A stretch of 64,000 nt of DNA from a virus, in IMG/VR virus record IMGVR_UViG_3300023184_000093, positions 1-64,000 of that record. The stretch is one strand, 5' to 3'. A model generated the notes under the pieces. That model made no database searches and had not been told where the DNA came from. It worked only from the letters and a program-made list of their open reading frames with translations. Of this stretch, positions 47,913 through 64,000 are shown one piece after another (position 1 is the first letter of the stretch; the number at the start of each line of letters is the position of its first letter). Position numbers and translations under genes: made by a program.

Positions 47913-47943
47913 CATAAATATTGGTAGTTAATTAAGGACTACC

Positions 47944-48765: not shown

Positions 48766-49406
48766 GTCTTAGTTTTACAATTATTTCCGTGCCAGCGAGT
48801 ATAGTTATTAACACTTATAGTTTTAGAACAATACTCACACACTTTTTTTAACTGCGAAGTATGCCTGCCCTCATCTAATTGTTTTCTCATTATAGATCCC
48901 CCAATTAGATTATGTGTTCCGGCATCTATTCTTGCTTGGTTAGACGCGGGTCCTAAAAAATTATGTGTTTTATTTTCTAATCTTTTTAAGTTAGATTCAC
49001 GTTGAATTTTTCCACCTTGAAAATTATGTGTACCATTAGCTATTTTTTTGTTATTAACTATAGAAGCAGCCTCAACTCCTTTACGTTGAACATTAGGATC
49101 TAAAAAAGGATGTGTTCCGTCTGCTAACTTTTTATAAGCAACTTTCCTTGCTATCTCTGATAATTCTTCTGAAGATAGTTTCATACGAACAGCTATAGCA
49201 TAACAAGCACCATAATCGCCCTGAGAACAATGAACATCGTAGTGTTCTTGTATAGTAATACCTGTTAAGTTAGCAGGATCGTGATTACTATGATTGCCGT
49301 CTATATGATGGATTTCATAACTTCGTCCTTCACTATCTTTAGGGATAGGACCGTTATGTTCTTGATAGATCTTTCTGTACCTAGCAGTACCACAATAAAT
49401 ACACAT
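48762..49406 (-). CDS. Free-standing HNH (homing) endonuclease
   Basis: YEIHHIDGNHSN.DP.NL......EH...H; five GTH[NP]F-like repeats; C-terminal CxxC...H...C. Confidence 0.85.
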   Translation of the reverse strand: MCIYCGTARYRKIYQEHNGPIPKDSEGRSYEIHHIDGNHSNHDPANLTGITIQEHYDVHCSQGDYGACYAIAVRMKLSSEELSEIARKVAYKKLADGTHPFLDPNVQRKGVEAASIVNNKKIANGTHNFQGGKIQRESNLKRLENKTHNFLGPASNQARIDAGTHNLIGGSIMRKQLDEGRHTSQLKKVCEYCSKTISVNNYTRWHGNNCKTKT

Positions 49407-49474
49407 TGCTGATGCTCCTTCAAAGCGTTAGAGTAGTTGGATATTTCCAGTATCGCGAACTACAACTTTATTTA
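49396..49474. ncRNA. 79-bp structured cassette at the HNH gene start, copy A (candidate leader/antisense RNA)
   Basis: 36/38 identity with 63907-63944 over 49427-49464; two hairpins; bounded by TAAATA and TATTTA. Confidence 0.65.
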
Positions 49475-49484
49475 GTTAAATACT

Positions 49485-49577
49485 ATGAATGAAACTACAA
49501 ACAATCCAAATGAATATCCAGTCTATCCAGAAGATGATGGCACAGATCGTCCAAGAAATCCTTACAGCCCTGTATGA
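49485..49577 (+). CDS. Micro-ORF, 30 aa (MNETTNNPNEYPVYPEDDGTDRPRNPYSPV)
   Basis: Translated by hand; follows TAAATA at 49477-82; no SD. Confidence 0.35.
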   Translation: MNETTNNPNEYPVYPEDDGTDRPRNPYSPV

Positions 49578-49629
49578 AGCACTAGCAAGAGTAGGATGCG
49601 GATTAGCAGGACTCCCTTACCCACCTTAG
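49534..49629 (+). CDS. Micro-ORF, 31 aa (MMAQIVQEILTALYEALARVGCGLAGLPYPP)
   Basis: Translated by hand; overlaps the previous ORF in another frame; amphipathic-helix-like. Confidence 0.35.
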   Translation: MMAQIVQEILTALYEALARVGCGLAGLPYPP

Positions 49630-49709
49630 GGCACGTTAGTCGTCACGGTTATAGGCGTCCGCGCAATTGAACTTCCAGGCGTACTTGGAGCCAGATAAAG
49701 TAACTGGCA
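49617..49709. ncRNA. Candidate structured non-coding RNA
   Basis: About 54% GC over 49621-49700 (my count) in an AT-rich genome; hairpins TCCAGG-cgta-CTTGGA and GCCAG-n9-CTGGC. Confidence 0.4.
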
Positions 49710-49721
49710 CTAAATAATACT

Positions 49722-50126
49722 ATGAAGATTACTGAGTTACTAGTTGAAGGTAGAGAATCTCGAGCAACATTTGTTGACATGTTCAAGAAGTTTCTTCCCT
49801 TGGCTATGGAAATATTAGAAATAGATAGACTACCTAAAATGAACTTTGAATCTGAAATAGATTCAGGTGGCCAGCCAAGTTTTGGTATGTATGTCAATGA
49901 TGAAAAAACCCTACATGTTGCTATTCTAAATCGTCATCCAGTAGATATTTTACGTACAGTAGCACATGAATTAGTTCATTTTAGACAAGATATGCGTAAT
50001 GAACTTAATGATAATAGTGGTGAGACAGGATCACCTGAAGAAAATCAAGCACACGAGATTGCCGGTGTTATTATGCGTCACTTCAATAAACAACATCCGC
50101 AATTCTTACGTAGCCAGCCAATCTAA
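49722..50126 (+). CDS. Zincin-like metallopeptidase-domain protein, possibly a head-packaged internal protein
   Basis: LRTVAHELVH (HExxH) with downstream ENQA; N-terminal MKITELLVE; TAAATA 5 nt upstream of ATG. Confidence 0.7.
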   Translation: MKITELLVEGRESRATFVDMFKKFLPLAMEILEIDRLPKMNFESEIDSGGQPSFGMYVNDEKTLHVAILNRHPVDILRTVAHELVHFRQDMRNELNDNSGETGSPEENQAHEIAGVIMRHFNKQHPQFLRSQPI

Positions 50127-50134
50127 ACGGTCGT

Positions 50135-50164
50135 AAAAAAGCCCCGATCTAATGCCGGGGCTTC
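50135..50164. terminator. Intrinsic terminator between convergent genes
   Basis: aaaaaaGCCCCG-atctaatgc-CGGGGCtt; U-tract on the minus strand. Confidence 0.75.
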
Positions 50165-50193
50165 TGGACTACGTCCTATATATTTTTATTATA

Positions 50194-50469
50194 TTATTTT
50201 TTAGATGCAGTAGTACTACTAGCATTAACAAATGAATACATTTTTTCTGCTGTCTCTAGAACTTTATCTAGTCCTGGAAAAGTTGGCATTGCCACTGTAC
50301 TAACGATTTGACCAGTCTTCTCGTCACGAGTAGCAGTCATTTCCCATCCTTGGAATTTAGCATGGAAATCGTCTTGTACTAGACTTTTAGCCATTCCGAG
50401 AATGTCTGTACGGATTTCGTAACCGTTCTTGTTGAATTTTACTTCAGGTGCTTTAATTGTGTTTGACAT
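50194..50469 (-). CDS. Conserved small phage protein
   Basis: 91 aa with NGYEIR.DIL.MAK ... P....VLE.AEKMY.FV; AAGGAG SD. Confidence 0.7.
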   Translation of the reverse strand: MSNTIKAPEVKFNKNGYEIRTDILGMAKSLVQDDFHAKFQGWEMTATRDEKTGQIVSTVAMPTFPGLDKVLETAEKMYSFVNASSTTASKK

Positions 50470-50494
50470 AATTTTCTCCTTGTGTGTGTATGTC

Positions 50495-50776
50495 TTAGGC
50501 AGTAGCCCTCTTGCTACGTGTAGCCTTAGCCTCGGCTACTTCTTCATTCTTAGGAAACAACTTGTCAGAGATTGAATCCATGGAATATTTTGCGAGTTCA
50601 GTAAAGTTGTGTGCCAACATTTTAGCAAACTGTGTCTGAGCATCGATGTATTCGTGTGCTGCCTTGTTCAGTGTGGGATCAGTAATGATCTTGTCTGTTA
50701 GGCCTCGCTTGGTTTCTTGGAACGCTTCGATATGTGCGTCAAGTGTTAGATATGGTGCGAACATTTTATTAAACAT
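50495..50776 (-). CDS. Phasin-like small helical protein
   Basis: 93 aa amphipathic helical protein (IEAFQ..K ... YIDAQTQFAK); AAGGA SD; TATAAATA upstream. The family call is by resemblance only. Confidence 0.5.
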   Translation of the reverse strand: MFNKMFAPYLTLDAHIEAFQETKRGLTDKIITDPTLNKAAHEYIDAQTQFAKMLAHNFTELAKYSMDSISDKLFPKNEEVAEAKATRSKRATA

Positions 50777-50822
50777 TTTTATTTCCTTGTGTATGTGTCT
50801 AGCAGTAATTGTACTGCATTGT

Positions 50823-50830
50823 TATTTATA
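50823..50830 (-). promoter_or_regulatory. T4-type late promoter TATAAATA
   Basis: Exact TATAAATA on the minus strand, followed by hairpin GCAGTA-caat-TACTGC (50802-50817) and then the phasin-like gene. Confidence 0.6.
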
Positions 50831-50918
50831 TTACAATTGTTATGAGTGTTTTAGTTTTAAAACGCTCAGGATAATTTAACCGTTCCCACTCCTCATCGGA
50901 GACAGGCCACCAGTACAT
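50826..50918 (-). CDS. Micro-ORF, 30 aa (MYWWPVSDEEWERLNYPERFKTKTLITIVI)
   Basis: Start overlaps the upstream stop (TAATG), suggesting translational coupling. Confidence 0.45.
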   Translation of the reverse strand: MYWWPVSDEEWERLNYPERFKTKTLITIVI

Positions 50919-51052
50919 TAGATCCAGCCCTTAAATTCTTCCATCATAATACGCTTGGCACCGGCATGATCACCACGCTGTGCTAGATGTGTAGCAGCAC
51001 GGGCCTTGCCCATGTCACCTAAAAAGTTATAGATTGATTTTATGATTTTCAT
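50918..51052 (-). CDS. Small protein, 44 aa (MKIIKSIYNFLGDMGKARAATHLAQRGDHAGAKRIMMEEFKGWI)
   Basis: Translated by hand; AAGGA SD inside the upstream gene; tight operon spacing. Confidence 0.65.
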   Translation of the reverse strand: MKIIKSIYNFLGDMGKARAATHLAQRGDHAGAKRIMMEEFKGWI

Positions 51053-51054
51053 GA

Positions 51055-51228
51055 TTACCAGTTCCTTCCTGCTTGTTGCATGTCAAATTGACGAGTAAGA
51101 CGATCCACATCACATGCATTTTGTGGTGCATGACACATAATGTATGCTTCTAATGCTGATCCGTAAGTTTGTGGCTTATTAAAATTCTGAAACATCTTGT
51201 GGAAGTATTCAGCTAGTTGGGTTAACAT
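51055..51228 (-). CDS. Small protein, 57 aa, DUF3563-like
   Basis: MLTQLAEYFHKMFQNFNKPQTYGSALEAYIMCHAPQNACDVDRLTRQFDMQQAGRNW; AGGAG SD; LEAY.......DVDRL.R pattern recalls betaproteobacterial DUF3563. Confidence 0.6.
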   Translation of the reverse strand: MLTQLAEYFHKMFQNFNKPQTYGSALEAYIMCHAPQNACDVDRLTRQFDMQQAGRNW

Positions 51229-51379
51229 ATTTTTCTCCTGTTGTTAAAATATTGTAGCGACTCAGTAGTTCTACTAATATACTTATCTATTTTATGCTGC
51301 AACCGCACAATTTACAAGTCTTTATTTTTCCAAACATCTATGTTACAATCTACTAAATATCAATAACAAGGATAACATC

Positions 51380-51679
51380 TTGAAAAAAGCAACTCGTAGT
51401 CTATTAGAAGAACTTAATTCCATATCGGAAAAGAAAAACAGTGAAGCCATAATTGAAGCTAGGGCTACACATGTTATTGACAGTGCAATCAATCTATTAG
51501 CACTTATTAAGGAAAACTTCTCCACAGAAGATGCTTATGAATTAGAACGTAGACTAATTAATAGCATTAAAGGCGGTGATCCTGCCAAATTTACCCGTAG
51601 TATACGTAGGTTAAGAGATAACAAAGAAACCGCTAAACATTTAATTGTTATAGAAGGTGATGTTAAAAACGACGATTAA
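51380..51679 (+). CDS. Conserved hypothetical phage protein
   Basis: TTG start with AAGGA SD and TAAATA (51354-59); TRSLLEELN...LERRLINSIK..DP.KF.R. Confidence 0.7.
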   Translation: MKKATRSLLEELNSISEKKNSEAIIEARATHVIDSAINLLALIKENFSTEDAYELERRLINSIKGGDPAKFTRSIRRLRDNKETAKHLIVIEGDVKNDD

Positions 51680-51769
51680 TAAACCATTTGGTTAATTTTT
51701 TTCTAATTGAGATAAATAAAAACATAAAGAGTTCCATGGGGGAGCTCAAACAAATTAGGAGATTTTAAA

Positions 51770-52171
51770 ATGGCAACAATTAATAGAGTTCACGGCCAAA
51801 CTAGTGCCGGAGCATTTTTTGGTTATACACCAATGGCAGTTAGAGTTAATTACTCTGGTAAATTTACAGCTGATAGCGTTAACGGTACAACAGGCGCAAT
51901 TACAGACGGTGGTTATACAATTGCACGTAGAGTAATTCAAACATTTGGTAGCATTGTATGGTTAGGTGCTCGTACTGATGACGACTACATTTTTGTAATC
52001 GTTGATCAACCAACTTTCAACACAGGTGATGGTACTGGTGGTCAAGGTGCAACAACTGGCTTTGGTGCTTTAAAAACAGCATTGCAAGCAGCATTAGGCG
52101 GAACTACTTCCTCATACACAACTGTATCTGGAACATCTATCACCAATCAAGGTGCATTCACATTAGCTTAA
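51770..52171 (+). CDS. Probable abundant virion protein (head decoration-like)
   Basis: Own TAAATA, strong AGGAG SD and its own terminator. Confidence 0.6.
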   Translation: MATINRVHGQTSAGAFFGYTPMAVRVNYSGKFTADSVNGTTGAITDGGYTIARRVIQTFGSIVWLGARTDDDYIFVIVDQPTFNTGDGTGGQGATTGFGALKTALQAALGGTTSSYTTVSGTSITNQGAFTLA

Positions 52172-52186
52172 TATCTAATTAAGTGA

Positions 52187-52218
52187 GAAGAAAGGGAGTT
52201 TCGAACTCCCTTTTTCTT
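52187..52218 (+). terminator. Intrinsic terminator
   Basis: AAAGGGAGT-ttcga-ACTCCCTTT followed by a T-rich run. Confidence 0.85.
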
Positions 52219-52258
52219 TGAGTAAATTTACTAAATATAAACATTGAGGAGATAGAAA

Positions 52259-52672
52259 ATGGTAGGAATAACAAAAACACATGAGACATTAGTTGCACCA
52301 GCGTATAAGAATGGTGTAACATTACAATTTGTAACTATCTCATTTCCAAATGTAGATTTAACAGCAAAATTAGGAAGAGTAAACGGTGTACAAAGCCCAG
52401 TGGTGCAAGCACTAGATGCTATTGCTCAACTAGCCAGTATTGAAATTATTGGTACTCCAAGATATGCTACTACTACAACATTGAGTATTGCTTGTGCAGC
52501 ATTAGGTGGTGCATTTGGTACAGCAGACTATGATGGTGATCATGATGTTGAAACATTTTCGGTTGCTTGCCAACAAGCAATAGTTGCAATTGCTACTAGC
52601 ACAGGATCGTTACAAGGGTATGATAATACTAATACTACAGTAGCAGCAGAAATACGCGGTGTTGCTCTTTAA
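52259..52672 (+). CDS. Probable abundant virion protein, similar in size and composition to 51770..52171
   Basis: Own TAAATA (52232-37), GAGGAG SD and its own terminator. Confidence 0.6.
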   Translation: MVGITKTHETLVAPAYKNGVTLQFVTISFPNVDLTAKLGRVNGVQSPVVQALDAIAQLASIEIIGTPRYATTTTLSIACAALGGAFGTADYDGDHDVETFSVACQQAIVAIATSTGSLQGYDNTNTTVAAEIRGVAL

Positions 52673-52691
52673 AATTAATTAAAGAATAAAG

Positions 52692-52718
52692 AAGGAAGTT
52701 TTTTAACTTCCTTTTTTT
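52692..52718 (+). terminator. Intrinsic terminator
   Basis: AAGGAAGTT-tttt-AACTTCCTT followed by a T-run. Confidence 0.8.
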
Positions 52719-52747
52719 ACGACATAAATATATTATATAGGTATATT

Positions 52748-53173
52748 ATGCAAACCATTGAAATAAAAACTTTAATAGATATAACAAACACCAATGTGTC
52801 TCGTCCCAACCAAGGCACACAACTTGAAATGGATCAACATAGAAACTTTACAACACTAAAACAATGTGCAGAACTTAGATCAATTATTTCTTATGATTTT
52901 TCACCTGAGCTGCAAGTAATAGATGTTAAAGATTTAGGATTTGGTTCTAAGTATAAAGGCAAACATGCTGTGTGGACTTTTAGATTTAGTCCTGATAGAT
53001 CAGGAGCCTATGCTAACGATGATAATGATATAGGATGTTTACTTGAAGATGTACATGGAGTTCCGGTTGTTGAAAAGTTAACTGAAACGATAAATATCGA
53101 GAAGGCCATTTTCGAACTAATAGATGCGTCTTCCAAGAATACAGTCATCAAGGCAATTAAAGGCACAATTTAG
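52748..53173 (+). CDS. Conserved hypothetical phage protein
   Basis: TLIDIT.T...Q..NF.TL.Q...LR; upstream TAAATA (52725-30). Confidence 0.7.
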   Translation: MQTIEIKTLIDITNTNVSRPNQGTQLEMDQHRNFTTLKQCAELRSIISYDFSPELQVIDVKDLGFGSKYKGKHAVWTFRFSPDRSGAYANDDNDIGCLLEDVHGVPVVEKLTETINIEKAIFELIDASSKNTVIKAIKGTI

Positions 53174-53216
53174 GCAATAAGTTGGAAATTCGTAAACCCT
53201 AAAGGAGAGTCCAGAG

Positions 53217-53537
53217 ATGGCCCGTGAAGCACTTGCTACCGTTCCCGAACGTGTTAGCGTATTAGAAACAAAAGTAGATAATATTGAAGAAAAGATTGAT
53301 GATCTTAAAGTAGATGTCAAGGAAATGCACGATTGTCTTGATAAGACACGTGATAGTATTATGGAACAACTTTCTGTAATGCATAAGGCCAATGTCGATC
53401 AACATAGTGATATGGCTGGTAAGATTAAAGCCCTTGAACAATTTAAAACAAAATGGGTTTATCTTAGTGCAGGAGCATTAGCAGCAGTAGGATGGATTAC
53501 AGGACATGCTGAAACATTACTAGGCATTTTAAAATAA
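53217..53537 (+). CDS. Coiled-coil protein with a C-terminal transmembrane segment (holin/XhlA-like architecture)
   Basis: Heptad ERVSVLETKVDNIEEKIDDLK followed by hydrophobic WVYLSAGALAAVGWI; AAGGAG SD. Confidence 0.55.
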   Translation: MAREALATVPERVSVLETKVDNIEEKIDDLKVDVKEMHDCLDKTRDSIMEQLSVMHKANVDQHSDMAGKIKALEQFKTKWVYLSAGALAAVGWITGHAETLLGILK

Positions 53538-53538
53538 T

Positions 53539-53901
53539 ATGCGTATATTGGAATTATTAGAAGCGGTACCAGTTGGGTCGAGTACACAACCAGCACCAGC
53601 ACCTGGAACAACTCCGCCAGCCGCACCTGCACCTGGAACACCACCAGCTACACCAGCACCTGGAGTACCTCCTACAGCACCAGCAACTGGAGCACCTCCG
53701 CCAGCCGCACCTGCACCTGGAACACCACCAGCTGCACCAGCAACTGGAGCACCTCCTACAGCACCTGCACCTAATCCTGCACTACAGCAAGGTATGAAAG
53801 ATACCATGACAGATCTTGACAAAATTGCAGCACAGATTGTAGCACTCAAACAACAACAACAGCAGATGCAGCAGCAAATGCAACAACCACCAAAAGTATG
53901 A
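53539..53901 (+). CDS. Pro/Ala-rich, Gln-tailed low-complexity protein, possibly an internal head protein
   Basis: MRILELLE start; [16 protein letters not shown] direct repeats. Confidence 0.65.
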
Positions 53902-54110
53902 AAATAGGTCAGTTATTATCAGGGATGCACATTGTTCTCACCAATGAAGAACAATCTTTTGTCCATAGACATAAAGATAATGTATCTATTACCAGTTTGG
54001 ATGAGCACGATTTATGGCTTGCTCAAAACCTTGTCCGCAAGGGAATTTACTCGATAAGTAAAGATAACCGAACAATGGTAAAAAAATTAGATGAAACAAC
54101 AACTACCTAA
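53898..54110 (+). CDS. Hypothetical protein
   Basis: 70 aa, coupled to its neighbours; LTNEE..F...LA.NLVRKG. Confidence 0.65.
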   Translation: MKIGQLLSGMHIVLTNEEQSFVHRHKDNVSITSLDEHDLWLAQNLVRKGIYSISKDNRTMVKKLDETTTT

Positions 54111-54564
54111 TGATGTTTATTCTGCAATAGAAAAACTCAGCAAAGACGCTAAATCAAAATTATTACAGCAAGGTGTAGTAGTGCCTATAAGAGGCAAAGA
54201 TGGTGTCATTAATGTAGGAAACTACGCAATTAAACGAAAAAAAGATGGGTTTTATTGCATTTTAGACTTTGAAAAAGAAGTAATTCTAGATAGAATTAAT
54301 CTTCCACAAACAGCAGCAGTAATAGCTAATAGACTAGCATTAGGCAAATATATTGATGATGTGGTTGTTGATGCTGATACAGGCTACGGATATTCATTGT
54401 TTAATGAAGAACTACATACTAAATTAGCTGACAAGAATATAAAAACTAAGATGATAGATCGTGCTGATGTTATGTATACTAAAGCTAAAATAGATAGGTA
54501 TAAGAAGGAACAACACCTGAAAACCGTAATGAGAAGTTTTAATAAACTTATGCAATTTAGCTAA
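54091..54564 (+). CDS. Hypothetical protein
   Basis: 157 aa ORF in the operon. Confidence 0.65.
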   Translation: MKQQLPNDVYSAIEKLSKDAKSKLLQQGVVVPIRGKDGVINVGNYAIKRKKDGFYCILDFEKEVILDRINLPQTAAVIANRLALGKYIDDVVVDADTGYGYSLFNEELHTKLADKNIKTKMIDRADVMYTKAKIDRYKKEQHLKTVMRSFNKLMQFS

Positions 54565-54594
54565 ATAATATTATCAATCTTTCCGGGATTAACT

Positions 54595-55953
54595 ATGAAA
54601 ACAAGTGATTTTAACTCTCCGCTAACAAGTGCCAAACTAAACGAAAACATGAACAAGATGTTCGGTGTACGAGTTAAGTTGGAAAACTATTCAAGAGAAC
54701 AGCTAGAAGATATGCGTAACAAATTACGCACCCGCGTTTTCCAACAAGAGGGTTCAGCAGGCATTAATGATTTGCTAACCAACGAAACATATCAAAAAGA
54801 CAAGGCCATGTTGGACTTGCTAAACACAAGGATTAAAGAAATGCTAGGCGAAGACATCAAAAAACTACGTGACAAAATGGATCAATTAAGCGAAGCTAAA
54901 AAAGGATCCAAGGGTACAATGGCTAACAAAGACTACGACAACGACGGCAGAATTGAAACAGGTAAAGCTGAAGTCATGGGTAGCCGTATGAAGGCTGCTG
55001 CTAAGGCCGGCAAACCATTCAAGGAAGCACAGGGGGACGATGCAAAAGCTCGTGTTGCTCAACAGCAGGCAGATCGAGATGATCCAATGAGCCCTAACTT
55101 TAAAGATACCAACAAAAAACCTAGTAGTGTTCGCCGAGTCCAAGGTACAAGCTATGGTAATCAAGCTCAAGAGAAAGAGAAAGACAAAGAGCTTGAAGAA
55201 GGCAAATCATGTTCAAAAGGTCATACTAAAATGACCAAAGGATGTAAAGAGTGTGCTGGTATGTATGAAGCCAAGAAATCTAAGCCAGATACAAATAACA
55301 ACAACATCCCTGACTATGCTGAAGATGGTAAAGGGCCAAACGATACAAAGAAAAAAGGTGCAGCACCTAAGAAAGGTGTAAACCCTTTTGCTAAAAAGAA
55401 AGTTAAAGAAGCCTTTAATTCCTTTAAGCACAACGTTCAATTTGTTAATGAAAGTTTAGGCTATCTATTACAAGAAGATGAAGAAGGTAAGGCTAAGGCC
55501 ATTACCGCAGCAGGTGATATGGTCAATGACTTTACCAGTTGGATGCAACGTGTTGGCCAATATCAAACTAAAACTATGATTGAATTAGCGGATGCTATCA
55601 AAGCAGACTTTGGAGCACAAGAAGCAGAAGCATTCAAAGCCACAGTTGGACCAGCATTGTCTGCTACACTTGAGACACTAACTCAACAACGTGAAGCAGT
55701 AAGTGCAGCAGTAGCAACATTGGCAGGCGAAGCTACACCTGACGCAGCAATGGGCATGGAACCAGAAATGCCTCCAGAGCCGGGTATGGATATCGGTGCT
55801 CCTGATGCAATGAATCCAGAACCAGCCGGTGATGAATTTGGTGGAGCGGATGCAGCAGCAGGTGCAGGAACAACCGGACGTGAAATGCGTGAAAGCAAGT
55901 TTGCTCGCAAATTGGCCGAATCACATAACATCATGGCTTCATTGGCAAAGTAA
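54595..55953 (+). CDS. Probable prohead core/scaffold-like protein
   Basis: Charged, low-complexity protein with many hydrophobic-X-E sites (LNE, LSE, LEE, VKE, VNE, LQE, MRE, LAE); upstream TAAATA. Confidence 0.5.
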   Translation: MKTSDFNSPLTSAKLNENMNKMFGVRVKLENYSREQLEDMRNKLRTRVFQQEGSAGINDLLTNETYQKDKAMLDLLNTRIKEMLGEDIKKLRDKMDQLSEAKKGSKGTMANKDYDNDGRIETGKAEVMGSRMKAAAKAGKPFKEAQGDDAKARVAQQQADRDDPMSPNFKDTNKKPSSVRRVQGTSYGNQAQEKEKDKELEEGKSCSKGHTKMTKGCKECAGMYEAKKSKPDTNNNNIPDYAEDGKGPNDTKKKGAAPKKGVNPFAKKKVKEAFNSFKHNVQFVNESLGYLLQEDEEGKAKAITAAGDMVNDFTSWMQRVGQYQTKTMIELADAIKADFGAQEAEAFKATVGPALSATLETLTQQREAVSAAVATLAGEATPDAAMGMEPEMPPEPGMDIGAPDAMNPEPAGDEFGGADAAAGAGTTGREMRESKFARKLAESHNIMASLAK

Positions 55954-56310
55954 ATGAAATTATTTGAAGTAGATCTTGGATCCGCAAGCGACATTCTGAG
56001 GATTCTACAAAGTAACGCTAACAAGCCAGGTTCTGCAGGAACAGGTCGGTCTTTGACTGTGCCTTTTACTGCAATGATTAATCTGTTAGATCGATTTGAT
56101 TTGGGTATTAGTACCATAGACGGTATACGTAAATGGGTCGAAACAGTTCCTGGCGCTAAAGCAGTTATTGACAGTGTGTTGGATGACGGATCTGTTATAG
56201 TTAAAACCGCAGCACAAAATCCCAATAAAGATAAAGCACAACAAGCAGGCGGTGCAAGTCCTGCAATTGATGCCATGGCATCTAAAAATGCCAAAACTAT
56301 AACCAAATAG
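55954..56310 (+). CDS. Hypothetical protein, possibly an internal head protein
   Basis: MKLFEV start; abuts the upstream stop. Confidence 0.65.
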   Translation: MKLFEVDLGSASDILRILQSNANKPGSAGTGRSLTVPFTAMINLLDRFDLGISTIDGIRKWVETVPGAKAVIDSVLDDGSVIVKTAAQNPNKDKAQQAGGASPAIDAMASKNAKTITK

Positions 56311-56339
56311 TTGCTATACTGATTGTCAAGTGTTATAAT
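56311..56339 (+). promoter_or_regulatory. Sigma70-type promoter with extended -10
   Basis: TTGCTA, 17-nt spacer, TATAAT with TG at -15/-14. Confidence 0.65.
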
Positions 56340-56348
56340 TAACACTAT

Positions 56349-57047
56349 ATGACAACAACTTACAATCCACCGCCTTTCGTTGAAAGATTTCAATATAAAA
56401 ATTGTGTACAGATCAATGATCCAATAACTCGAAAAAGAGTATACCGAACTCCAGACGGAGAAAAACTACCTAGCGTAACTACTATCTTAGGTGCTACTAA
56501 AGATCAAACGCATCTTAATGCATGGCGAGATCGTATCGGACACGATAAAGCACAACAAATTACCACAGAGGCAGCAGGGGTTGGTACTGCAATGCATGCC
56601 AATTTGGAACGTTTCTTAATTGGAGAACAACGTCAACCAGGGAGCAATCCAGTGCATGTACAGGCTAACAAAATGGCCGACATCATTATTGAAAACGGTC
56701 TTAGTAAAATGAGTGAAGTTTGGGCTATGGAACAAAGTCTTTACTTTCCTGGATTGTACAGCGGTACTACTGACTTGATCGGTATACACGAAGGTGAGCC
56801 GGCAGTTTGCGATCACAAACAAACTAATAAGCCTAAAAAGCTAGAATGGGTCGATGACTACTACATACAATTGATGGCGTATATACTAGCACATAATGAA
56901 GTATATGGAACTAATATACGTAAAGGTGTTATATTCATGTGTAGTAGAGATTTACAATATCAACAATTTACACTAGAACCTAAAGACTTTAACAAATGGC
57001 AAGACGCTTGGTTGAATAAAGTTGAAGAATATTATAAAATAATTTAA
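56349..57047 (+). CDS. PD-(D/E)XK exonuclease (Cas4/RecB/MGME1-like phage exonuclease)
   Basis: LPSVTTIL, GT.MH..LE, E..L....YSGTTD.......DHK and QL.AY motifs. Confidence 0.85.
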   Translation: MTTTYNPPPFVERFQYKNCVQINDPITRKRVYRTPDGEKLPSVTTILGATKDQTHLNAWRDRIGHDKAQQITTEAAGVGTAMHANLERFLIGEQRQPGSNPVHVQANKMADIIIENGLSKMSEVWAMEQSLYFPGLYSGTTDLIGIHEGEPAVCDHKQTNKPKKLEWVDDYYIQLMAYILAHNEVYGTNIRKGVIFMCSRDLQYQQFTLEPKDFNKWQDAWLNKVEEYYKII

Positions 57048-57058
57048 AGGAAATAATA

Positions 57059-57610
57059 ATGAAAACACATAGAACTCATTTCTATCATAAAATACAAGGG
57101 TGGCCAAATCAGCTACCACAAATTTATGCAGAAGCAGTAAAAATTGCCCCACAGTCGGGCGCACATTTTGTAGAAATTGGATGTTGGAAAGGAGCCAGTG
57201 CATCGGCAATGTGTGTAGAAATAATTAACAGTGGAAAAGAAATTAAATTTGATTGCGTAGATACATGGGGCGGAAGTGCAGATGACTCTACACCTATTGT
57301 ACATGATGATTCAGTTTATAATGAATTTTTAACAAATTTAGAATCTGTTACTGGTTATTTTAATCCTATAAGAATGCTTAGTACAGAAGCAGCAAACCTT
57401 TATCAAGATGAGAGTTTGGATTTTATATGTATTGATGCTTCGCATGATTACGAAAATGTAAAAGCAGATATATTAGCCTGGTTACCTAAATTGAAGTCTG
57501 GTGGGATACTTGCAGGGGATGATTATCCATATCCCGGAGTTGCAAAAGCAGTTCAAGAAATTTGTCCAGGTTATACTGGACAAATTGGCTGGTGGTGGAC
57601 AAAACCCTGA
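57059..57610 (+). CDS. Class I SAM-dependent methyltransferase (Methyltransf_24-like)
   Basis: VEIGCWKG.S, VDTW.GS and DFI.IDASHDYE.V..DI..W.P.LK.GG...GDDY motifs. Confidence 0.85.
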   Translation: MKTHRTHFYHKIQGWPNQLPQIYAEAVKIAPQSGAHFVEIGCWKGASASAMCVEIINSGKEIKFDCVDTWGGSADDSTPIVHDDSVYNEFLTNLESVTGYFNPIRMLSTEAANLYQDESLDFICIDASHDYENVKADILAWLPKLKSGGILAGDDYPYPGVAKAVQEICPGYTGQIGWWWTKP

Positions 57611-57660
57611 AAATTAACTAGCCCTTTCATGATAAATATCTCATAACGAGGGATATTATT

Positions 57661-59343
57661 ATGGCTGTGGTTGAAATTTCAAAAATTCAAGTACGTAGAG
57701 GACAAGAAAATCAAACTGGTATACCAGCATTAGCCGGTGGAGAATTTGGTTGGGCAGCCGATACTGAGCATTTATACATTGGCCTAAGAAGAGATGACGG
57801 CGGTGCTAGAGATGCTAATGTTAGAATTCTAACTGAAAATGATTTAATAGTATCAAATCTTTTTGATTCATCTATTGCGGCTAATTATACCTATCGTAAT
57901 GATACCGACCCTCCTATTACTGCTCATCCAACCACGGGTATTGCATTTGTAAGAGATATTAATAGAAAAATAGATGACTTTGTTAGTATTAGAGATTTTG
58001 GTATAATTGGGCAGGGTGGTGCTATTATTGAATCAGAATTGATTCAGGCTGCTATAGATCATTTATTTCTTGATCCATTAAAAAGTACCACATATTTTGG
58101 AACATATACTGCTAAGGTATTATATTTTCCAGCAGGTGTTTACAATATAGATCAACCTATACTTGTTCCAGGTTATACAACTATAGTAGGTGATGGAATT
58201 GGTAAAACTATTATTAATTTAAAAGCTACCAATAGTTCCGCTATTCAAACAATAGATGCAGATAAAAATGATATCTATACAAACAGGGTAACATTTGATA
58301 CAGGCAATATGTCCTCAGGACCTTCGCAGCCTAATTATCTGCATGTACAAGGATTAACTATACAGTATAGTACAGATATTGGTGTAGCTAATTGTTTACC
58401 TTTAGTAAGTTTAGATTGTTCTGAAAATGCTACGTTTAGAGATGTTAAATTTGCAGGCAATCATTATATAGGTGATAACATAGATGCAGGACACAGTGCT
58501 ATTACCATTAGAGGATATGCCGGTGCTGAAAATTTAACAGTATCATCTAATAATACATTAATTGATAACTGTGAATTTGATGGATTTTATCATTGTGTAA
58601 TATCAAATTTTGATATTGTAAATCCTGTTATACAAAATTCTCAGTTATATAATTCTGTAAGAGGAATTACATTCAATGATGAAGTCAACCCCGAGGCAAC
58701 AACTGGCCCTCGCGGTGCTCGTATCTTGAATAATAGATTTGTAAAAATTAATCAACAAGCTATATATGTTGGAGATAGTGCCAACGGTTATACTTCTGAT
58801 AATGTTATTATGAATAATCGTTTTTACAATGTAGGTAATCTTAACTATGGTAGAACTAGTACAACTGGTACCTCTGTGATTACATTAGGTAACGGTGATG
58901 TAAGCATGAACAATTGGTTTGATAGACAAGAATATCAAAATACAAAGTTTGGAGATACTCTGATTAATTATGTACCGCTTATTAGTGGTCCTGCTGTTGT
59001 TAATAATTTAGCAGTTAAAACTGCTTTTATAGATGCAGGGGCATCTACTATAATTAGATTACCCATAACTAAATTATCACAAAATTTAACTGTTAATTAT
59101 AAGTTAACTCAAGGTATTCCAGGAGCATATACTATTGATAGAATTGGAAAACTTAATATATATCTACAGCCAGGCGATACTCCAAATGATACCAATATTT
59201 TAGATGAATATACTTACATTGCTGGGGAAGGTGATATTCGATGGAGTGTGATAGTTGTTGCTGCACGTGCCTATTACGAACTAAGTATATTAACTTTGCT
59301 TAACGATCTTACACTAGAATTTCAAACTAACCTAATGATCTAA
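57661..59343 (+). CDS. Tail/baseplate protein with Mtd_N-like N-terminus and pectate-lyase-like beta-helix
   Basis: ISKIQVRRG....P.LAGGEFGWA.D...LYIG; VSIRDFG..G.G......IQAAID; LYFPAG.Y. Confidence 0.75.
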   Translation: MAVVEISKIQVRRGQENQTGIPALAGGEFGWAADTEHLYIGLRRDDGGARDANVRILTENDLIVSNLFDSSIAANYTYRNDTDPPITAHPTTGIAFVRDINRKIDDFVSIRDFGIIGQGGAIIESELIQAAIDHLFLDPLKSTTYFGTYTAKVLYFPAGVYNIDQPILVPGYTTIVGDGIGKTIINLKATNSSAIQTIDADKNDIYTNRVTFDTGNMSSGPSQPNYLHVQGLTIQYSTDIGVANCLPLVSLDCSENATFRDVKFAGNHYIGDNIDAGHSAITIRGYAGAENLTVSSNNTLIDNCEFDGFYHCVISNFDIVNPVIQNSQLYNSVRGITFNDEVNPEATTGPRGARILNNRFVKINQQAIYVGDSANGYTSDNVIMNNRFYNVGNLNYGRTSTTGTSVITLGNGDVSMNNWFDRQEYQNTKFGDTLINYVPLISGPAVVNNLAVKTAFIDAGASTIIRLPITKLSQNLTVNYKLTQGIPGAYTIDRIGKLNIYLQPGDTPNDTNILDEYTYIAGEGDIRWSVIVVAARAYYELSILTLLNDLTLEFQTNLMI

Positions 59344-59346
59344 AAT

Positions 59347-59781
59347 ATGTTTAACCAACCTGTTGATGCAAGACTAACAGAATGGATTGAACATAGGCGA
59401 GACTTAGACCAGAGCACTGAGCCATTACAGGCAGTTTGGGATTTCTGGCAATCCGCTCCGTTCATTCCACACAATAGAAATATTGATCCTTATCATCAGA
59501 AAAGCTGGCCAACCCCTTGGGAAATTATTGAAACAAATAGATATGACGATTTTACCAAGGCACTAATGATAAGTTGGACATTGAAATTGACAAAAAAATA
59601 TCAAAATAGTAAGATAGAACTCAAAACCCTTGTTGACTCTAATCGTACAAAAGAGTATAATGTTGTATGTGTAGATGATGCTTGGGTATTAAACTATAAT
59701 GATAATGGACCTGTTTCCGTTAAAGAATTAGCTAGTGGATTTAAACTTGAAAATCTAATTGAAGTTATAGGTCCCAGGTAA
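59347..59781 (+). CDS. Conserved hypothetical phage protein
   Basis: RL..W...R and W...P......DP.....WPTPWE motifs. Confidence 0.7.
   Translation: MFNQPVDARLTEWIEHRRDLDQSTEPLQAVWDFWQSAPFIPHNRNIDPYHQKSWPTPWEIIETNRYDDFTKALMISWTLKLTKKYQNSKIELKTLVDSNRTKEYNVVCVDDAWVLNYNDNGPVSVKELASGFKLENLIEVIGPR
59633..59661 (+). promoter_or_regulatory. Sigma70-type promoter for nrdA, inside the upstream gene
   Basis: TTGACT, 17-nt spacer, TATAAT. Confidence 0.6.
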
Positions 59782-59811
59782 ATATCACCTAAGACATAAA
59801 AAGGTATAAGA

Positions 59812-62136
59812 ATGATAACAGTAGTAAAGCGTAATGGAAGCCGTGTATCCATGGACATAGAAAAGATTCAAAGACAAGTAGCATATTCTTGTAAGGGAAT
59901 CGACGGGGTTAGTCCTAGCATGATTGAAATTAAAGCTCAAATAGAACTACATGACGGGATGACCACAGAAACTATTGATCAATTATTGCTCAAAGCTATG
60001 GTAGACTTAGTCGACGAAACAGAAAATCCAGAAATTAATAATGTTAACTATCAATATGTAGCGGGTAGACAACGTGTGAGTATGCTACGTAAAGAAGTAT
60101 ATGGACAATACGACCCACCGGCTCTTTATGATATTGTAAAGAAAAATGTTGAGTTAGGTATGTATACTAAAGAATTACTAGAATGGTATACTAAAGAAGA
60201 ATGGGATATTATAGACTTATTCATCGACCATGACAAAGATGAAGGATACACATATGCGGCAATTGCTCAACTATGTGAAAAGTATCTAGTACAGAATCGT
60301 GCCACTGGACAAATATTCGAAACTCCTCAGGTACGTTATGCTGTGGCTTCTGCTACAGCATTCCATAATGAATCCAAGGAGGCTAGATTAAAATATGTCA
60401 AAGAATATTATGAATGTGCTAGTGCGGGTCACTTTACATTGGCTACACCTGTGCTTGCTGGCCTTGGTACTACTACTAAGCAGTTTAGTAGCTGTGTCCT
60501 TATCAGTAGCGATGATACTCTGGACAGCATCTTCGCTTCTGGTGAAATGATGGCCAAGTATGCTAGTAAACGTGCTGGCATTGGTTTAGAGATTGGACGC
60601 ATTCGCCCATTAGGTGCTCCTATTCGTAATGGCGAGATTAAACATACAGGTATGATACCTTTCTTAAAGAAATGGTTTGCTGACCTACGTAGTTGCAGCC
60701 AAGGTGGTATTCGCAATGCTAGCTGTACAGTAACATTTCCTGTTTGGCATTATCAATTTGAAGACCTTATTGTATTGAAAAACAATCAAGGCACAGAAGA
60801 AACCCGTGTACGTCAAATGGATTACAGCGTAGTAGTTAACAAGATGTTTTGGAATCGTTATAAGAATGGGCAAATGATGAGTTTGTTTGATCCACACGAT
60901 GTACCAGACCTGTACGAAGCCTACTATCGCAACAGCGAAGAATTTGAAAAACTATACCTAAATTATGAAAAACATCCGACAATTAAAAAGAAGAGCGTAT
61001 CGGCGGATGAAATATTCAAAAATGGCATCCTTAAGGAACGTACTGATACTGGGCGCATCTACCTTGTCAACATTGACAACGTTATCAACCAGGGGCCGTT
61101 TGATACCCAGCTTGACCCAATATATCAATCAAATCTATGCCAAGAAATACTTTTACCCACGAAGCCTTTCCAAAGAATTGAAGATCCAGAGGGACGCATT
61201 GCTCTTTGTACTCTTGGGTCCATAAATTGGGGTGCTTTCCGTAACCCACAAGAGATGCGTAAGGCTTGCAGAGTATTGGTTCGCAGTCTAAGCAATCTAT
61301 TAAATTATCAAGATTTCCTAAGCATACAGAGTAAGTTAGCCAACACGGATTTTGAACCTCTCGGCGTTGGCATTACAAACTTAGCCTACTGGCATGCACG
61401 TAAGAGTTTTAAATACGGAACACCAGAAGCATTAGCAGAAGTTAAACGTTGGATGGAACATCAAGCATATTACCTTACCGAAGCAAGTGTAGAACTAGCC
61501 CAAGAGCGTGGCCCATGTCTGCGTAGCGAATACACCTACTACGGTCGGGGAATATTCCCTTGGGAACGTAGAGCAGCAGGTGTTAATGAATTAACTGATT
61601 TCGCACCTAGCATAGACTGGGAACCATTGCGTGAACGTATGAAGAAATATGGTATACGCAATGCTACACTTATGGCAGTTGCTCCCGTTGAATCAAGTAG
61701 TGTTGTTCTAAACAGCACCAATGGTATTGAAATGCCCATGGAACTTATCAGCGTTAAAGAAAGCAAGGCAGGTTCATTTACACAGGTAGTTCCAGAATAC
61801 AAACGACTAAAGAACCGTTATCAACTAATGTGGGAACAAACCGACTGTGTTGACTACCTAAAGACATCGGCGGTATTGGCAGCATACATTGATCAAAGTC
61901 TAAGCACCAATACTTTCTATAGTCCACGACATTTTAAAGATGGAAAAGTGCCTGGTACATTGATTGCTAAAAATTTAATGTTAGCCTACAAGTGGGGCCT
62001 GAAGACCATATACTATAGCCTTCTGGATAAGGTAGGTAGTAAAAATGTATTAATGACCCAAAGTGATAGATTAGTAGCATTAGAACCTGTTACTATATAT
62101 AGTGACGACGAAGATTGCGAGGCATGTAAATTATGA
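59812..62136 (+). CDS. nrdA: Ribonucleoside-diphosphate reductase alpha subunit, class Ia
   Basis: N-terminal ATP cone (VVKRNG), FSSCVL, SNLCQEI, IALCTLG, KTIYY and C-terminal CEAC. Confidence 0.97.
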   Translation: MITVVKRNGSRVSMDIEKIQRQVAYSCKGIDGVSPSMIEIKAQIELHDGMTTETIDQLLLKAMVDLVDETENPEINNVNYQYVAGRQRVSMLRKEVYGQYDPPALYDIVKKNVELGMYTKELLEWYTKEEWDIIDLFIDHDKDEGYTYAAIAQLCEKYLVQNRATGQIFETPQVRYAVASATAFHNESKEARLKYVKEYYECASAGHFTLATPVLAGLGTTTKQFSSCVLISSDDTLDSIFASGEMMAKYASKRAGIGLEIGRIRPLGAPIRNGEIKHTGMIPFLKKWFADLRSCSQGGIRNASCTVTFPVWHYQFEDLIVLKNNQGTEETRVRQMDYSVVVNKMFWNRYKNGQMMSLFDPHDVPDLYEAYYRNSEEFEKLYLNYEKHPTIKKKSVSADEIFKNGILKERTDTGRIYLVNIDNVINQGPFDTQLDPIYQSNLCQEILLPTKPFQRIEDPEGRIALCTLGSINWGAFRNPQEMRKACRVLVRSLSNLLNYQDFLSIQSKLANTDFEPLGVGITNLAYWHARKSFKYGTPEALAEVKRWMEHQAYYLTEASVELAQERGPCLRSEYTYYGRGIFPWERRAAGVNELTDFAPSIDWEPLRERMKKYGIRNATLMAVAPVESSSVVLNSTNGIEMPMELISVKESKAGSFTQVVPEYKRLKNRYQLMWEQTDCVDYLKTSAVLAAYIDQSLSTNTFYSPRHFKDGKVPGTLIAKNLMLAYKWGLKTIYYSLLDKVGSKNVLMTQSDRLVALEPVTIYSDDEDCEACKL

Positions 62137-62276
62137 TAACAATTGGATTAATGGGTGTTGGTAGTGATAATACATTGTACACACCAAGTGGTAAAAAAAT
62201 ATGCCGTGTTCCCAAATGGATGGCATGGCGTATACAAAGCATCCAACATTGGATTGCAATAAGGACCTGGAAATGA
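62133..62276 (+). CDS. Small 47-aa protein between nrdA and nrdB
   Basis: [47 protein letters not shown]; ATGA overlaps with both nrdA and nrdB. Confidence 0.6.
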   Translation: MITIGLMGVGSDNTLYTPSGKKICRVPKWMAWRIQSIQHWIAIRTWK

Positions 62277-63373
62277 GCAAAGAACAATACAACTTGTTGA
62301 AACCAACAAACTATCTCAAACGTAAAATGTTTTTGGATCCTGCAGGTCCAGTTACAGTACAGCGTTTTGAAGAAGTCAAATATCAAAAATTACAAAAGTA
62401 CGAAGAGCTCGCCCGCGGATTCTTTTGGGTTCCAGAAGAAATTAGTCTTACTAAAGATAAGATGGATCACAAAGATGCCAGTGATGCTGTTAAACATATC
62501 TTCACTAGTAATCTATTAAGACAAACTGCATTGGATAGTATTCAAGGTCGAGCACCATTCCAAATCTTTGGACCAGTATCTAGTTTGCCCGAACTCGAAG
62601 CACTTGCATTGACATGGAGTTTTTTCGAAACCAGCATACACAGCAAATCATATAGTCACATTATTAGAAACATCTATAGTGTGCCCAAGGATGAATTCAA
62701 CAAGATCCACGACACTAAGGAAATTGTTGAAATGGCTGCTAACATAGGACGCCATTATGAAAATCTACACTTACTTAATTGCCGTAAAGAAATGGGTGAA
62801 GAAATTGATCTCCACACTCACAAGCGGGCAATTTGGTTGGCATTACATGCAAGCTATGCACTCGAGGCATTCCGCTTCATGGTATCATTCGCAACATCGT
62901 TGGCTATGGTCGAAAACAAAATCTACATCGGTAACGGAAACATCATTAGTCTCATCCTCCAAGACGAACTCCTCCATGCAGAATGGACCGCTTGGTTGAT
63001 CAACAATGTAGTCAAAGATGACTCAGACTTCGTTGTACTTGAAGAAGAATGTCGTGAAGAAGTATACGCAATGTATATGGAAGTTATTGCTGAAGAAAAG
63101 GCCTGGGCAGATTACTTGTTTAAGAAAGGACCAGTCATTGGTCTCAATGCTACTATTCTAAAAGACTTTGTAGACTATACAGCATTTATACGTTTAAAAG
63201 ACATTGGTATCAAGTATGCCGAAGAGCATCCACGTAGCAGTCCTATTCCATGGTTTAACAAACATGTTAACATTGGTAAGAAGCAAAGTGCATTACAGGA
63301 AACTGAAAGCACTAATTATGTTGTGGGAGTTATGAGTTCAGAAGTTAATCATTATGATCTTCCTGATTTGTAA
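62273..63373 (+). CDS. nrdB: Ribonucleoside-diphosphate reductase beta subunit, class Ia (likely start MSKEQY at 62273)
   Basis: [39 protein letters not shown] and C-terminal QETE.TNY; AAGGA SD at 62261. Confidence 0.95.
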
Positions 63374-63884
63374 TTACACTCCATCCTTTAACAGACTTTT
63401 GTCTATGAGCACCTTTAAATAATGAATGAACATTAATTTTACACAAATTGTATTTTGTGTAAAGTTCATTCTTAGTACAGTATTCAATAGTACCGCTTAC
63501 ATGACGAAACTTATGTAAACTATGATCGTACTGTCCATTGTTTTTGCCTTTTGTTTTGCTAGTGCGCCCCTTCATTTTTACTCGTTGTAATTCTTTCTGT
63601 CTTTCAGTTCTTATAAGTCCAGCACTACCCTCACCGCCGTCTGTTAAATTGCGCAATGTACCTGTTCCGTTATCTTTACGACCGTACCAACGAATCATTC
63701 GTCTTTCAAGTGCAAGCGCACCGAGATCTGTTAAGTTATGTTCAAGTATAATTATCTGAGATTTGTTTTTAGGAACAGAAATTACTTTTTGCTTTGAATA
63801 TGCTCGAAGCCCGTTGCCCTTACCAATGTAGTAAGGTGTGCCATCTAATCTTAGATAGGCGTAAACATAAAAGTGTAAATACAT
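63345..63884 (-). CDS. Free-standing GIY-YIG-family (homing) endonuclease
   Basis: [18 protein letters not shown]...R, LERRMI..YGR and L.N.TDGGEG motifs, then a basic DNA-binding tail. Confidence 0.85.
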
Positions 63885-63954
63885 TGCTGATAGTTCCTTA
63901 TAAACTGTTAGGGTAGTTGGATATGTCCAGTATCGCGAACTACACTTTTATTTA
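63876..63954. ncRNA. 79-bp structured cassette at the GIY-YIG gene start, copy B
   Basis: Homologous to 49396-49474, with compensatory changes in the SD hairpin. Confidence 0.65.
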
Positions 63955-63956
63955 TG

Positions 63957-63985
63957 TTGACTTTATCATTATCGACATATATACT
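63957..63985 (+). promoter_or_regulatory. Sigma70-type promoter for the next gene beyond the window
   Basis: TTGACT, 17-nt spacer, TATACT. Confidence 0.6.
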
Positions 63986-64000
63986 AATACTATAAAGATA

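Follow-up and report, generated by a model that had tools for sequence, protein, structure and literature searches.

What does a pair of hairpins do at the head of a phage nuclease gene, and on which strand does it act? The question is raised by a window of 64,000 nucleotides (nt), positions 1-64000 of the 72,999-bp IMG/VR virus record IMGVR_UViG_3300023184_000093 (CheckV completeness 21%), which carries two copies of an element of about 80 bp, here called the cassette (copy A, 49396-49474; copy B, 63876-63954), each directly upstream of the start codon of a minus-strand nuclease gene, A or B. Nucleases A and B show no mutual similarity (E 0.47). Among the selfish genes of T4-like phages, those for homing endonucleases come first, and the protection of their carriers from these enzymes has so far been explained by mRNA hairpins, promoter choice and autorepression. 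Comparing cassette copies, we found good support for the view that the conserved fold under selection is that of the strand antisense to the nuclease. The best explanation of the cassette is that it serves, in a clade of uncultured T4-like jumbo phages, as a portable control element of homing-endonuclease genes of the free-standing kind. With moderate confidence, we favour a mode of action in which two facing late promoters would produce the nuclease mRNA and a countertranscript covering its Shine-Dalgarno (SD) site and start codon.

A preliminary description of this DNA had placed two hairpins with G.U pairs and a plus-strand TAAATA at the head of each gene, and had claimed that the two copies of hairpin 2 differ solely at one loop base and that the antisense strand folds better than the mRNA strand. 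The hairpins, the G.U pairs and the TAAATA sites are present where they had been noted (Table 1). Searching the window for the 31-nt pattern of hairpin 2 returned exactly two occurrences, one loop base apart, where none was expected from 100 shuffles, and a covariance model run over the 73-kb record found these two copies alone (copy A, 77.4 bits; next best hit, 15.6 bits). Folding both strands with RNAfold gave -17.1 (A) and -16.9 (B) kcal/mol on the plus strand (z-scores -2.48 and -2.26) against -9.5 and -9.2 kcal/mol on the nuclease strand (z-scores +0.19 and -0.50), i.e. about -17 versus about -9 kcal/mol, confirming the claimed difference between the strands.

To follow the fold beyond the window we used a model (R1) made of 11 gapless copies with the two-hairpin structure, which found 83 copies in 77 sources; the resulting alignment (A4), to which all counts out of 83 refer, includes copies whose core departs from the 19-nt pattern of the database scan given below. 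On the plus strand, i.e. antisense to the nuclease, 99.3% of the 1682 pair cells are standard (1415 Watson-Crick and 256 G.U, next to 3 A.C and 8 other), compared with 83.6% in shuffles. Compensatory changes on both sides occur in 14 of 21 pairs (6/9 in hairpin 1 and 8/12 in hairpin 2); covariation, first reported for an inner stem of the two window copies, is seen in both hairpins. None of 500 shuffles reached any of the observed pairing measures and registers slid along the alignment paired at 26-52%, figures that overstate independence and are not to be read as probabilities, given that A4 was fitted to the structure of the model and that its copies are related. In the inner stem of hairpin 2, which the first search pattern kept constant, covariation is seen in the diverged copies (GAUAU/GUAUC, GAUG/CAUC, GACA/UGUC, GGAG/CUCC). 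The loop region of hairpin 1 carries an anti-SD sequence (CUCC, UCCU or CCUU) in 81 of 83 copies, as had been proposed from the two window copies, and the loop is 6-7 nt long in 74 of 83.

The same helices read on the nuclease strand pair in 84.3% of the cells, because the 256 G.U cells turn into A.C mismatches there while the reverse holds for 3 cells only. This asymmetry stands apart from the fitting of the alignment and the kinship of its copies, and it persisted at 91 G.U versus 3 A.C when near-invariant columns were removed. A mutation bias as the source of the G.U excess was considered and rejected, as the excess is found at fixed positions beside full compensatory changes. RNAalifold gave -21.2 kcal/mol for A4 and -6.0 kcal/mol for its reverse complement, and each of the 83 single sequences folded better on the plus strand (means -16.1 versus -9.6 kcal/mol), as did all 69 unique variants of an earlier set. 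A wider alignment had been named beforehand as the test on which the preliminary description could fall, and the 83 copies conserve the internal TAAATA as well as the G.U pairs.

Facing boxes and a candidate countertranscript

In the published account the late TATA box of T4 precedes the start site by about one helical turn (PMC2988020), and the ATAAATA of the present phage resembles it. The window has 12 plus-strand and three minus-strand sites of this motif; of the former, nine lie at most 60 nt upstream of a plus-strand open reading frame (ORF) of at least 90 amino acids (aa), which argues that ATAAATA acts as a promoter box of this phage. In A4, 81 of 83 copies have an outer box on the nuclease strand, placed 5 nt beyond hairpin 2 (ATAAATA 52, CTAAATA 20, GTAAATA 9). 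An inner box, TAA[AG]TA, stands on the plus strand within the first codons of the nuclease in 79 of 83 (GTAAATA 35, ATAAATA 29, ATAAGTA 11, TTAAATA 4). Most copies (56) have the inner box 6 nt from the first paired base of hairpin 1; in the others this distance is 5 nt (16 copies), 7 nt (three), 8 nt (three) or 9 nt (one), and a G fills the unpaired position ahead of hairpin 1 in 81 of 83. Relative to the start codon the inner box is offset by 2 in 38 copies, by 0 in 27 and by 1 in 11, so that it falls in all three reading frames and is not a conserved peptide motif. In 71 of 78 copies this offset and the gap between codon and hairpin sum to 5 or 6, the position of the start codon shifting while box and hairpin keep their distance. 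A candidate promoter motif for the opposite strand is present just inside the 5' end of the nuclease gene, and with the spacing of T4 both transcripts would start at the outer bases of the hairpins.

Based on this layout, we propose the following mechanism. From the outer box, transcription of the nuclease would begin at the base of hairpin 2, and from the inner box, on the opposite strand, a countertranscript would begin with the conserved G that precedes hairpin 1. Over its first ~65 nt the latter RNA is predicted to fold into two stable hairpins, both of which would be fully complementary to the mRNA leader, including the SD site (opposite the anti-SD in the loop of hairpin 1) and the start codon. 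Pairing of the two RNAs, probably loop to loop at first, would block ribosome binding and keep the level of the nuclease low. Transcription from the inner box, the position of the 3' end (after hairpin 2 or further downstream), repression and action in trans are all inferred here from sequence. Convergent late promoters making an mRNA and an antisense RNA were already part of the preliminary description; the facing boxes at fixed distances from the hairpins and the antisense fold agree with it, and the RNA itself is a prediction. We regard that earlier interpretation as partly supported.

Several observations weigh against this proposal, in addition to the fitting and kinship that limit the shuffle statistics. 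The full ATAAATA is found at the inner box in 29 of 83 copies versus 52 of 83 at the nuclease's own box, and the inner box may be weak. The flanking genes mostly run on the structured strand of the cassette, so that read-through transcripts from these co-directional neighbours would carry the fold without a dedicated promoter. The stem of hairpin 2 contains four G-C pairs and a bulge and is followed by a conserved AC, three variable bases and UAUUUA; the 8-nt stretch starting 2 nt after it contains 5-7 U in 78 of 83 copies, and hairpin 2 was not among the hits of a scan for the intrinsic-terminator consensus. Hairpin 2 is terminator-like rather than a textbook intrinsic terminator, and a discrete RNA of 70 nt is not assured. 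The two RNA-library runs retrieved (one study, word shares 0.07 and 0.06) consist of viral-metagenome contigs of relatives, which when compared with 47500-64000 were mostly less than 95% alike and carry no strand, start or end information. Contig ends taken as a proxy for RNA ends gave no signal either: of 118 metagenome contig stretches with the core, 7 end within 130 nt of it, at scattered positions.

Distribution of the cassette and its nuclease genes

To determine how widely the cassette occurs, we scanned IMG/VR for exact matches to its 19-nt core. The core was found in 113 stretches, making 115 copies with the two of the window, and in 112 of the 115 it lies 33-41 nt from the start codon of an ORF on the opposite strand; the exceptions are L069 (a 10-aa frame), L081 (a 7-aa frame) and L093. 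The 111 cassette-headed ORFs of at least 60 aa, mostly 170-260 aa long, fall into 21 subclusters (at least 45% identity) belonging to several nuclease families: of 10 representatives, Pfam assigned three to HNH, two to SegE_GIY-YIG, two to DUF7487, one to GIY-YIG and one to NUMOD3, and the tenth had no match. A complete relative of 322.5 kb with terminal repeats (G001) encodes a T4-type Gp23 capsid protein (271.6 bits) and carries one cassette; its Gp23 gene directly abuts the preceding ORF, and the upstream region is uninformative for a late box. A 155-kb fragment (G002, the record of L048) carries nine cassettes, all on one strand (L136, L138-L145), each heading a nuclease gene that lies antisense between co-directional genes, and the hairpin sequences are diversified among the nine. 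In G001 and G002 together, 6 of the 11 frames detected by Pfam GIY-YIG or HNH adjoin a cassette, indicating that the cassette is common but not universal.

Neither positions 63300-64000 nor the cassette itself matched a cultured phage genome by blastn. Rfam 15 yielded no family at the gathering score across the window and none at E at most 1 across 49300-49900, and a search for tRNA found none. In a collection of prokaryote genomes the core occurs in 10 stretches, of which nine match model positions 33-55 alone and are chance hits. The tenth (L154:4410-4479) holds a complete cassette at 75 bits; its 6.1-kb contig was binned to a metagenome-assembled genome labelled Polynucleobacter, which is at most a weak hint at the host. 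A further pattern, TAGAGN6GGATATNTCCAG, was rejected, as it returned 10 cassette-free stretches by chance and the known loci were not among them.

Some cassettes stand before reduced nuclease genes. Compared with L031:1721-1791, L081:3179-3250 retains the outer box, hairpin 2 and the promoter region downstream, but of hairpin 1 it has the 3' arm and not the 5' arm, and the nuclease gene is missing; it looks like the deletion footprint of a nuclease unit with the break in the loop of hairpin 1. Intact cassettes of 61-94 bits precede truncated nuclease frames at 8 distinct loci; in L005, L024, L037, L069, L072, L093 and L100 (with duplicates L087, L042 and L088) the shortened frames measure 10-110 aa. 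The cassette seems to outlast the nuclease gene, at least temporarily.

One extension of the proposed mechanism is that the antisense RNA acts in trans in mixed infections, silencing the cassette-headed nucleases of competitors, and that a cassette goes on shielding its carrier after its own nuclease has decayed. We consider this quite unlikely. The near-identity of hairpin 2 in the two window copies and the intact cassettes before truncated frames would fit it, and if specificity matters, the diversity of the hairpins among the nine copies of one genome would be expected.

In the window, nearly all long ORFs are on the plus strand, and both nuclease ORFs are among the minus-strand exceptions. 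Nuclease A matches phrog_12324, annotated as an intron-like DNA endonuclease, at E 5e-44. Nuclease B on its own has no Pfam match and no meaningful match to PDB sequences, and matches phrog_15526 (function unknown). A profile of its 32-member subfamily matched a GIY-YIG domain-containing protein of the PDB at E 0.0012; NUMOD3 was found in 12 of the 32 members, Pfam GIY-YIG at E at most 0.1 in four and the I-TevI DNA-binding domain in one. On this weak evidence nuclease B may be a divergent homing endonuclease of the GIY-YIG type.

Table 1. Nuclease genes, cassette parts and adjoining promoter in the window
Feature	Position	Strand	Basis
Nuclease gene A, HNH_3 type, 214 aa	48762..49406	-	ORF and Pfam HNH_3 (E 6.1e-10)
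Late-type box TAAATA (ATAAATA), codons 2-4 of nuclease A	49396..49401	+	Sequence
Hairpin 1, copy A: 8 pairs, CUGAU-GCU-[CCUUCAA]-AGC-GUUAG	49409..49431	+	Fold
Hairpin 2, copy A	49433..49463	+	Pattern, fold and model
Late-type box TAAATA (CTAAATA), nuclease A mRNA	49469..49474	-	Sequence
Nuclease gene B, divergent GIY-YIG-type homing-endonuclease-like (putative), 179 aa	63345..63884	-	ORF and subfamily profile
Late-type box TAAATA (GTAAATA), codons 2-3 of nuclease B, proposed countertranscript promoter	63876..63881	+	
Hairpin 1, copy B: 9 pairs, CUGAU-AGUU-[CCUUAUA]-AACU-GUUAG, 7-nt anti-SD loop	63887..63911	+	Fold
Hairpin 2, copy B: 6-pair outer stem, G-C pair, 5-pair inner stem closed by U.G, 5-nt loop	63913..63943	+	
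Late-type box TAAATA (ATAAATA), proposed nuclease B mRNA promoter	63949..63954	-	
Sigma70-like promoter TTGACT-17-TATACT, facing the next plus-strand gene, 3 nt past cassette B	63957..63985	+	

Nuclease B lies tail to tail behind nrdB, with nrdA upstream and, from reading the sequence by eye, a glutaredoxin-like ORF downstream of the nuclease gene. Its 3' end overlaps that of nrdB by 29 nt (63345-63373), and nuclease A overlaps a plus-strand gene for a nuclease-like protein of 273 aa, also tail to tail, by 4 nt (48762-48765); overlaps of -4 to -30 with the upstream gene recur in many related loci. Within 62201-63373, a relative's contig from an RNA-library run tracks nrdA-nrdB to 63337, past which it runs on for some 414 letters with no likeness to the window; this relative seems either to be without this nuclease insertion or to have a different one. 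Beyond copy A, positions 49489-49720 hold a 46-aa ORF with no visible SD followed by a GC-rich stretch (49575-49720), which folds no better than shuffles on either strand. Relatives' contigs from the RNA-library runs break inside 49489-49720, with loose ends at 49503, 49572 and 49652.

Alternative readings of the two hairpins

The setting of the cassette would also fit a different role. In T4-like phages, PeSL elements are described as composites of a terminator and a promoter (PMC4122927), and the cassette could be a similar composite, i.e. a host-sense terminator or insulator joined to an early promoter, whose hairpins act in the read-through transcript of the flanking genes, ending or stabilising the upstream message past the antisense nuclease while a downstream sigma70 promoter restarts transcription. 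The orientation of the neighbours is in keeping with this: a crude ORF call gives co-directional flanks (+,+) around the antisense nuclease for 43 of 79 distinct loci, the same holds for all 10 cassettes of G001 and G002, and the nine copies of G002 share one strand. Of 82 cassettes, 30 are followed within about 60 nt by a sigma70-like promoter that agrees with the consensus at 10 or more of 12 positions, compared with 2.1% of random 70-nt windows, and past hairpin 2 there is a U-rich tail, which in copy B is the minus-strand box read on the plus strand. The other 52 of the 82 cassettes, however, have no such promoter behind them. At four loci arranged nrdA-cassette-nuclease-nrdB-glutaredoxin (L022, L032, L070 and L111), and also at L063, the nuclease is co-oriented with its neighbours, so that the host transcripts run in the sense of the nuclease, and these loci nevertheless keep the antisense fold, the inner box and the G.U pairs that form on the plus strand only. 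The cassette goes with the nuclease and not with the neighbours. A composite of this kind would also leave unexplained why hairpin 1 straddles the SD and start codon, why the inner box keeps 5-6 nt from hairpin 1 in three frames and why the cassette travels with many nuclease families. We consider it unlikely, although less so than the other rivals of antisense control of the nuclease.

A little less probable in our judgement, the inner box could be an outward late promoter that the mobile unit carries for the downstream phage gene, with the hairpins merely stabilising the 5' leader and any antisense effect on the nuclease incidental. The next plus-strand ORF usually begins a few tens of nt past the cassette, hairpin 2 lacks the tight U-tract of a terminator, and T4 endonuclease genes are reported to embed promoters for downstream genes (PMC2988022). 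The co-oriented loci again argue the other way, as they have no plus-strand gene downstream (the antisense of nrdA lies there instead) and keep both box and fold; moreover, a leader would need neither an anti-SD loop nor an exact overlap with the nuclease start codon.

It is very improbable that the fold works as single-stranded DNA or as a protein-binding DNA site, for instance in recombination or shuffling of the nuclease unit. DNA hairpins tolerate G.T pairs, the cassette marks the boundary of a mobile unit, and in L081 the right part of the cassette remains although the nuclease is gone, as is the left arm of hairpin 1. Against these points, the promoter boxes at start-site distance from the bases of both hairpins suggest transcripts, hairpin 2 has an inner stem and a loop that are free to vary in sequence, unlike a sequence-specific protein site, and we know of no mechanism that ties HNH or GIY-YIG homing to a hairpin at the 5' end of the gene.

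Finally, that the hairpins act on the nuclease mRNA and mask its ribosome-binding site, the published mechanism for T-even homing endonucleases (I-TevI, I-TevII, I-TevIII, segB and Aeh1 mobE; PMC2988022) and the one assumed for metagenomic endonuclease leaders with TATAAATA (PMC2677866), is hardly credible here: Watson-Crick inner pairs are possible on either strand, but no stable masking hairpin was found on the mRNA strand, where folds are at shuffle level, 84.3% of cells pair, RNAalifold gives -6.0 kcal/mol and the SD lies largely in a loop, and the late box of the nuclease is upstream of both hairpins, so that late transcripts would keep the mask.

Relation to known control systems

The T-even and Aeh1 homing-endonuclease genes are among the nearest known systems. 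In the published account an mRNA hairpin masks their ribosome-binding site and a late promoter lies inside the hairpin, so that late transcripts escape the mask (PMC2988022). The cassette shares with them the gene class, the phage superfamily, a late box with hairpins beside the SD and restraint of the nuclease as the likely outcome. It differs in that its fold is on the opposite strand, its box is outside both hairpins and a second box faces the first (PMC2988022); no late promoter was found inside a hairpin, either in the window copies or across the alignment, the nuclease-strand box being placed 5 nt beyond hairpin 2. Dassa et al. described conserved 5'-untranslated-region hairpins with TATAAATA before free-standing GIY-YIG and Vsr-like endonucleases in the 'fractured genes' of GOS (PMC2677866). 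These leaders resemble the cassette in combining T4-like endonucleases of different families with hairpins, two complementary conserved motifs and a late-promoter box, a likeness drawn from the text of that description and not from the letters of the motifs (PMC2677866). In the account given there the hairpins are read on the mRNA strand as a translational mask, with no antisense reading (PMC2677866). Strand counts of G.U and A.C, as made here, can overturn a default reading of such hairpins as mRNA leaders.

Two other phage systems share single features. CfrI of cyanophage S-PM2 is an experimentally detected antisense RNA of about 225 nt that spans an endonuclease gene and psbA, its function being unknown in the source (PMC2984593); it is like the cassette, as far as its description goes, in being an antisense RNA opposite a homing-endonuclease gene of a T4-like phage, and unlike it in not being a portable 5' cassette (PMC2984593). 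PeSLs are short modules of a conserved stem-loop and a neighbouring promoter that recur where variable genes begin or end, a likeness that concerns the 30 of 82 cassettes with a sigma70-like promoter behind them. As described, they consist of a single short stem-loop and an early (or middle) promoter with no tie to nuclease start codons (PMC4122927), in contrast to the two covarying hairpins, the late boxes on both strands and the overlap with SD and AUG that characterise the cassette. The likeness to type I toxin-antitoxin systems drawn in the preliminary description proved loose, as the target is a nuclease of about 170-260 aa (HNH and GIY-YIG families) and not a small toxic peptide. The literature searched, of limited coverage, gave no description of an antisense-RNA cassette common to homing endonucleases, and Rfam 15 showed no homology to a described antisense-RNA family.

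By analogy, the closest working counterparts of the proposed mechanism are RNA-OUT of IS10 and art200 of IS200. In IS10, RNA-OUT is complementary over its first 35 nt to the initiation region of the transposase, and the system shows multi-copy inhibition (PMC5006887). As proposed here, the cassette would share with the RNA-OUT/RNA-IN pair of IS10/Tn10 a cis-encoded antisense RNA that restrains the DNA-cutting enzyme of its own mobile element, an antisense promoter facing that of the enzyme, complementarity to the translation-initiation region that blocks ribosome binding, and possible action in trans on other copies (PMC5006887). The two are unrelated in sequence and structure, Rfam finding nothing for the cassette; IS10 is described with sigma70 promoters and one hairpin, whereas the cassette has T4-type late boxes and two hairpins, its target is a homing endonuclease in a lytic phage and its RNA is a prediction. 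In IS200, art200 pairs with its target through a kissing loop and inhibits 30S binding (PMC4513863), the same geometry as that proposed for the cassette (PMC4513863). There, the mRNA leader also folds over the SD, whereas the mRNA-strand fold of the cassette is weak (PMC4513863), and IS200 is a different element in a different host with no homology to the cassette. What would be new is thus the use of cis-antisense control, a known kind of regulation, on phage homing endonucleases, for which the present data provide partial support. If the proposal is true, the cassette would represent a new, abundant and unnamed RNA family, found on more than 110 viral contigs with one exact 19-mer, and the homing genes of phages would gain, in a portable antisense-RNA module common to nuclease families that are unrelated, a further layer of control of the IS10 and IS200 kind.

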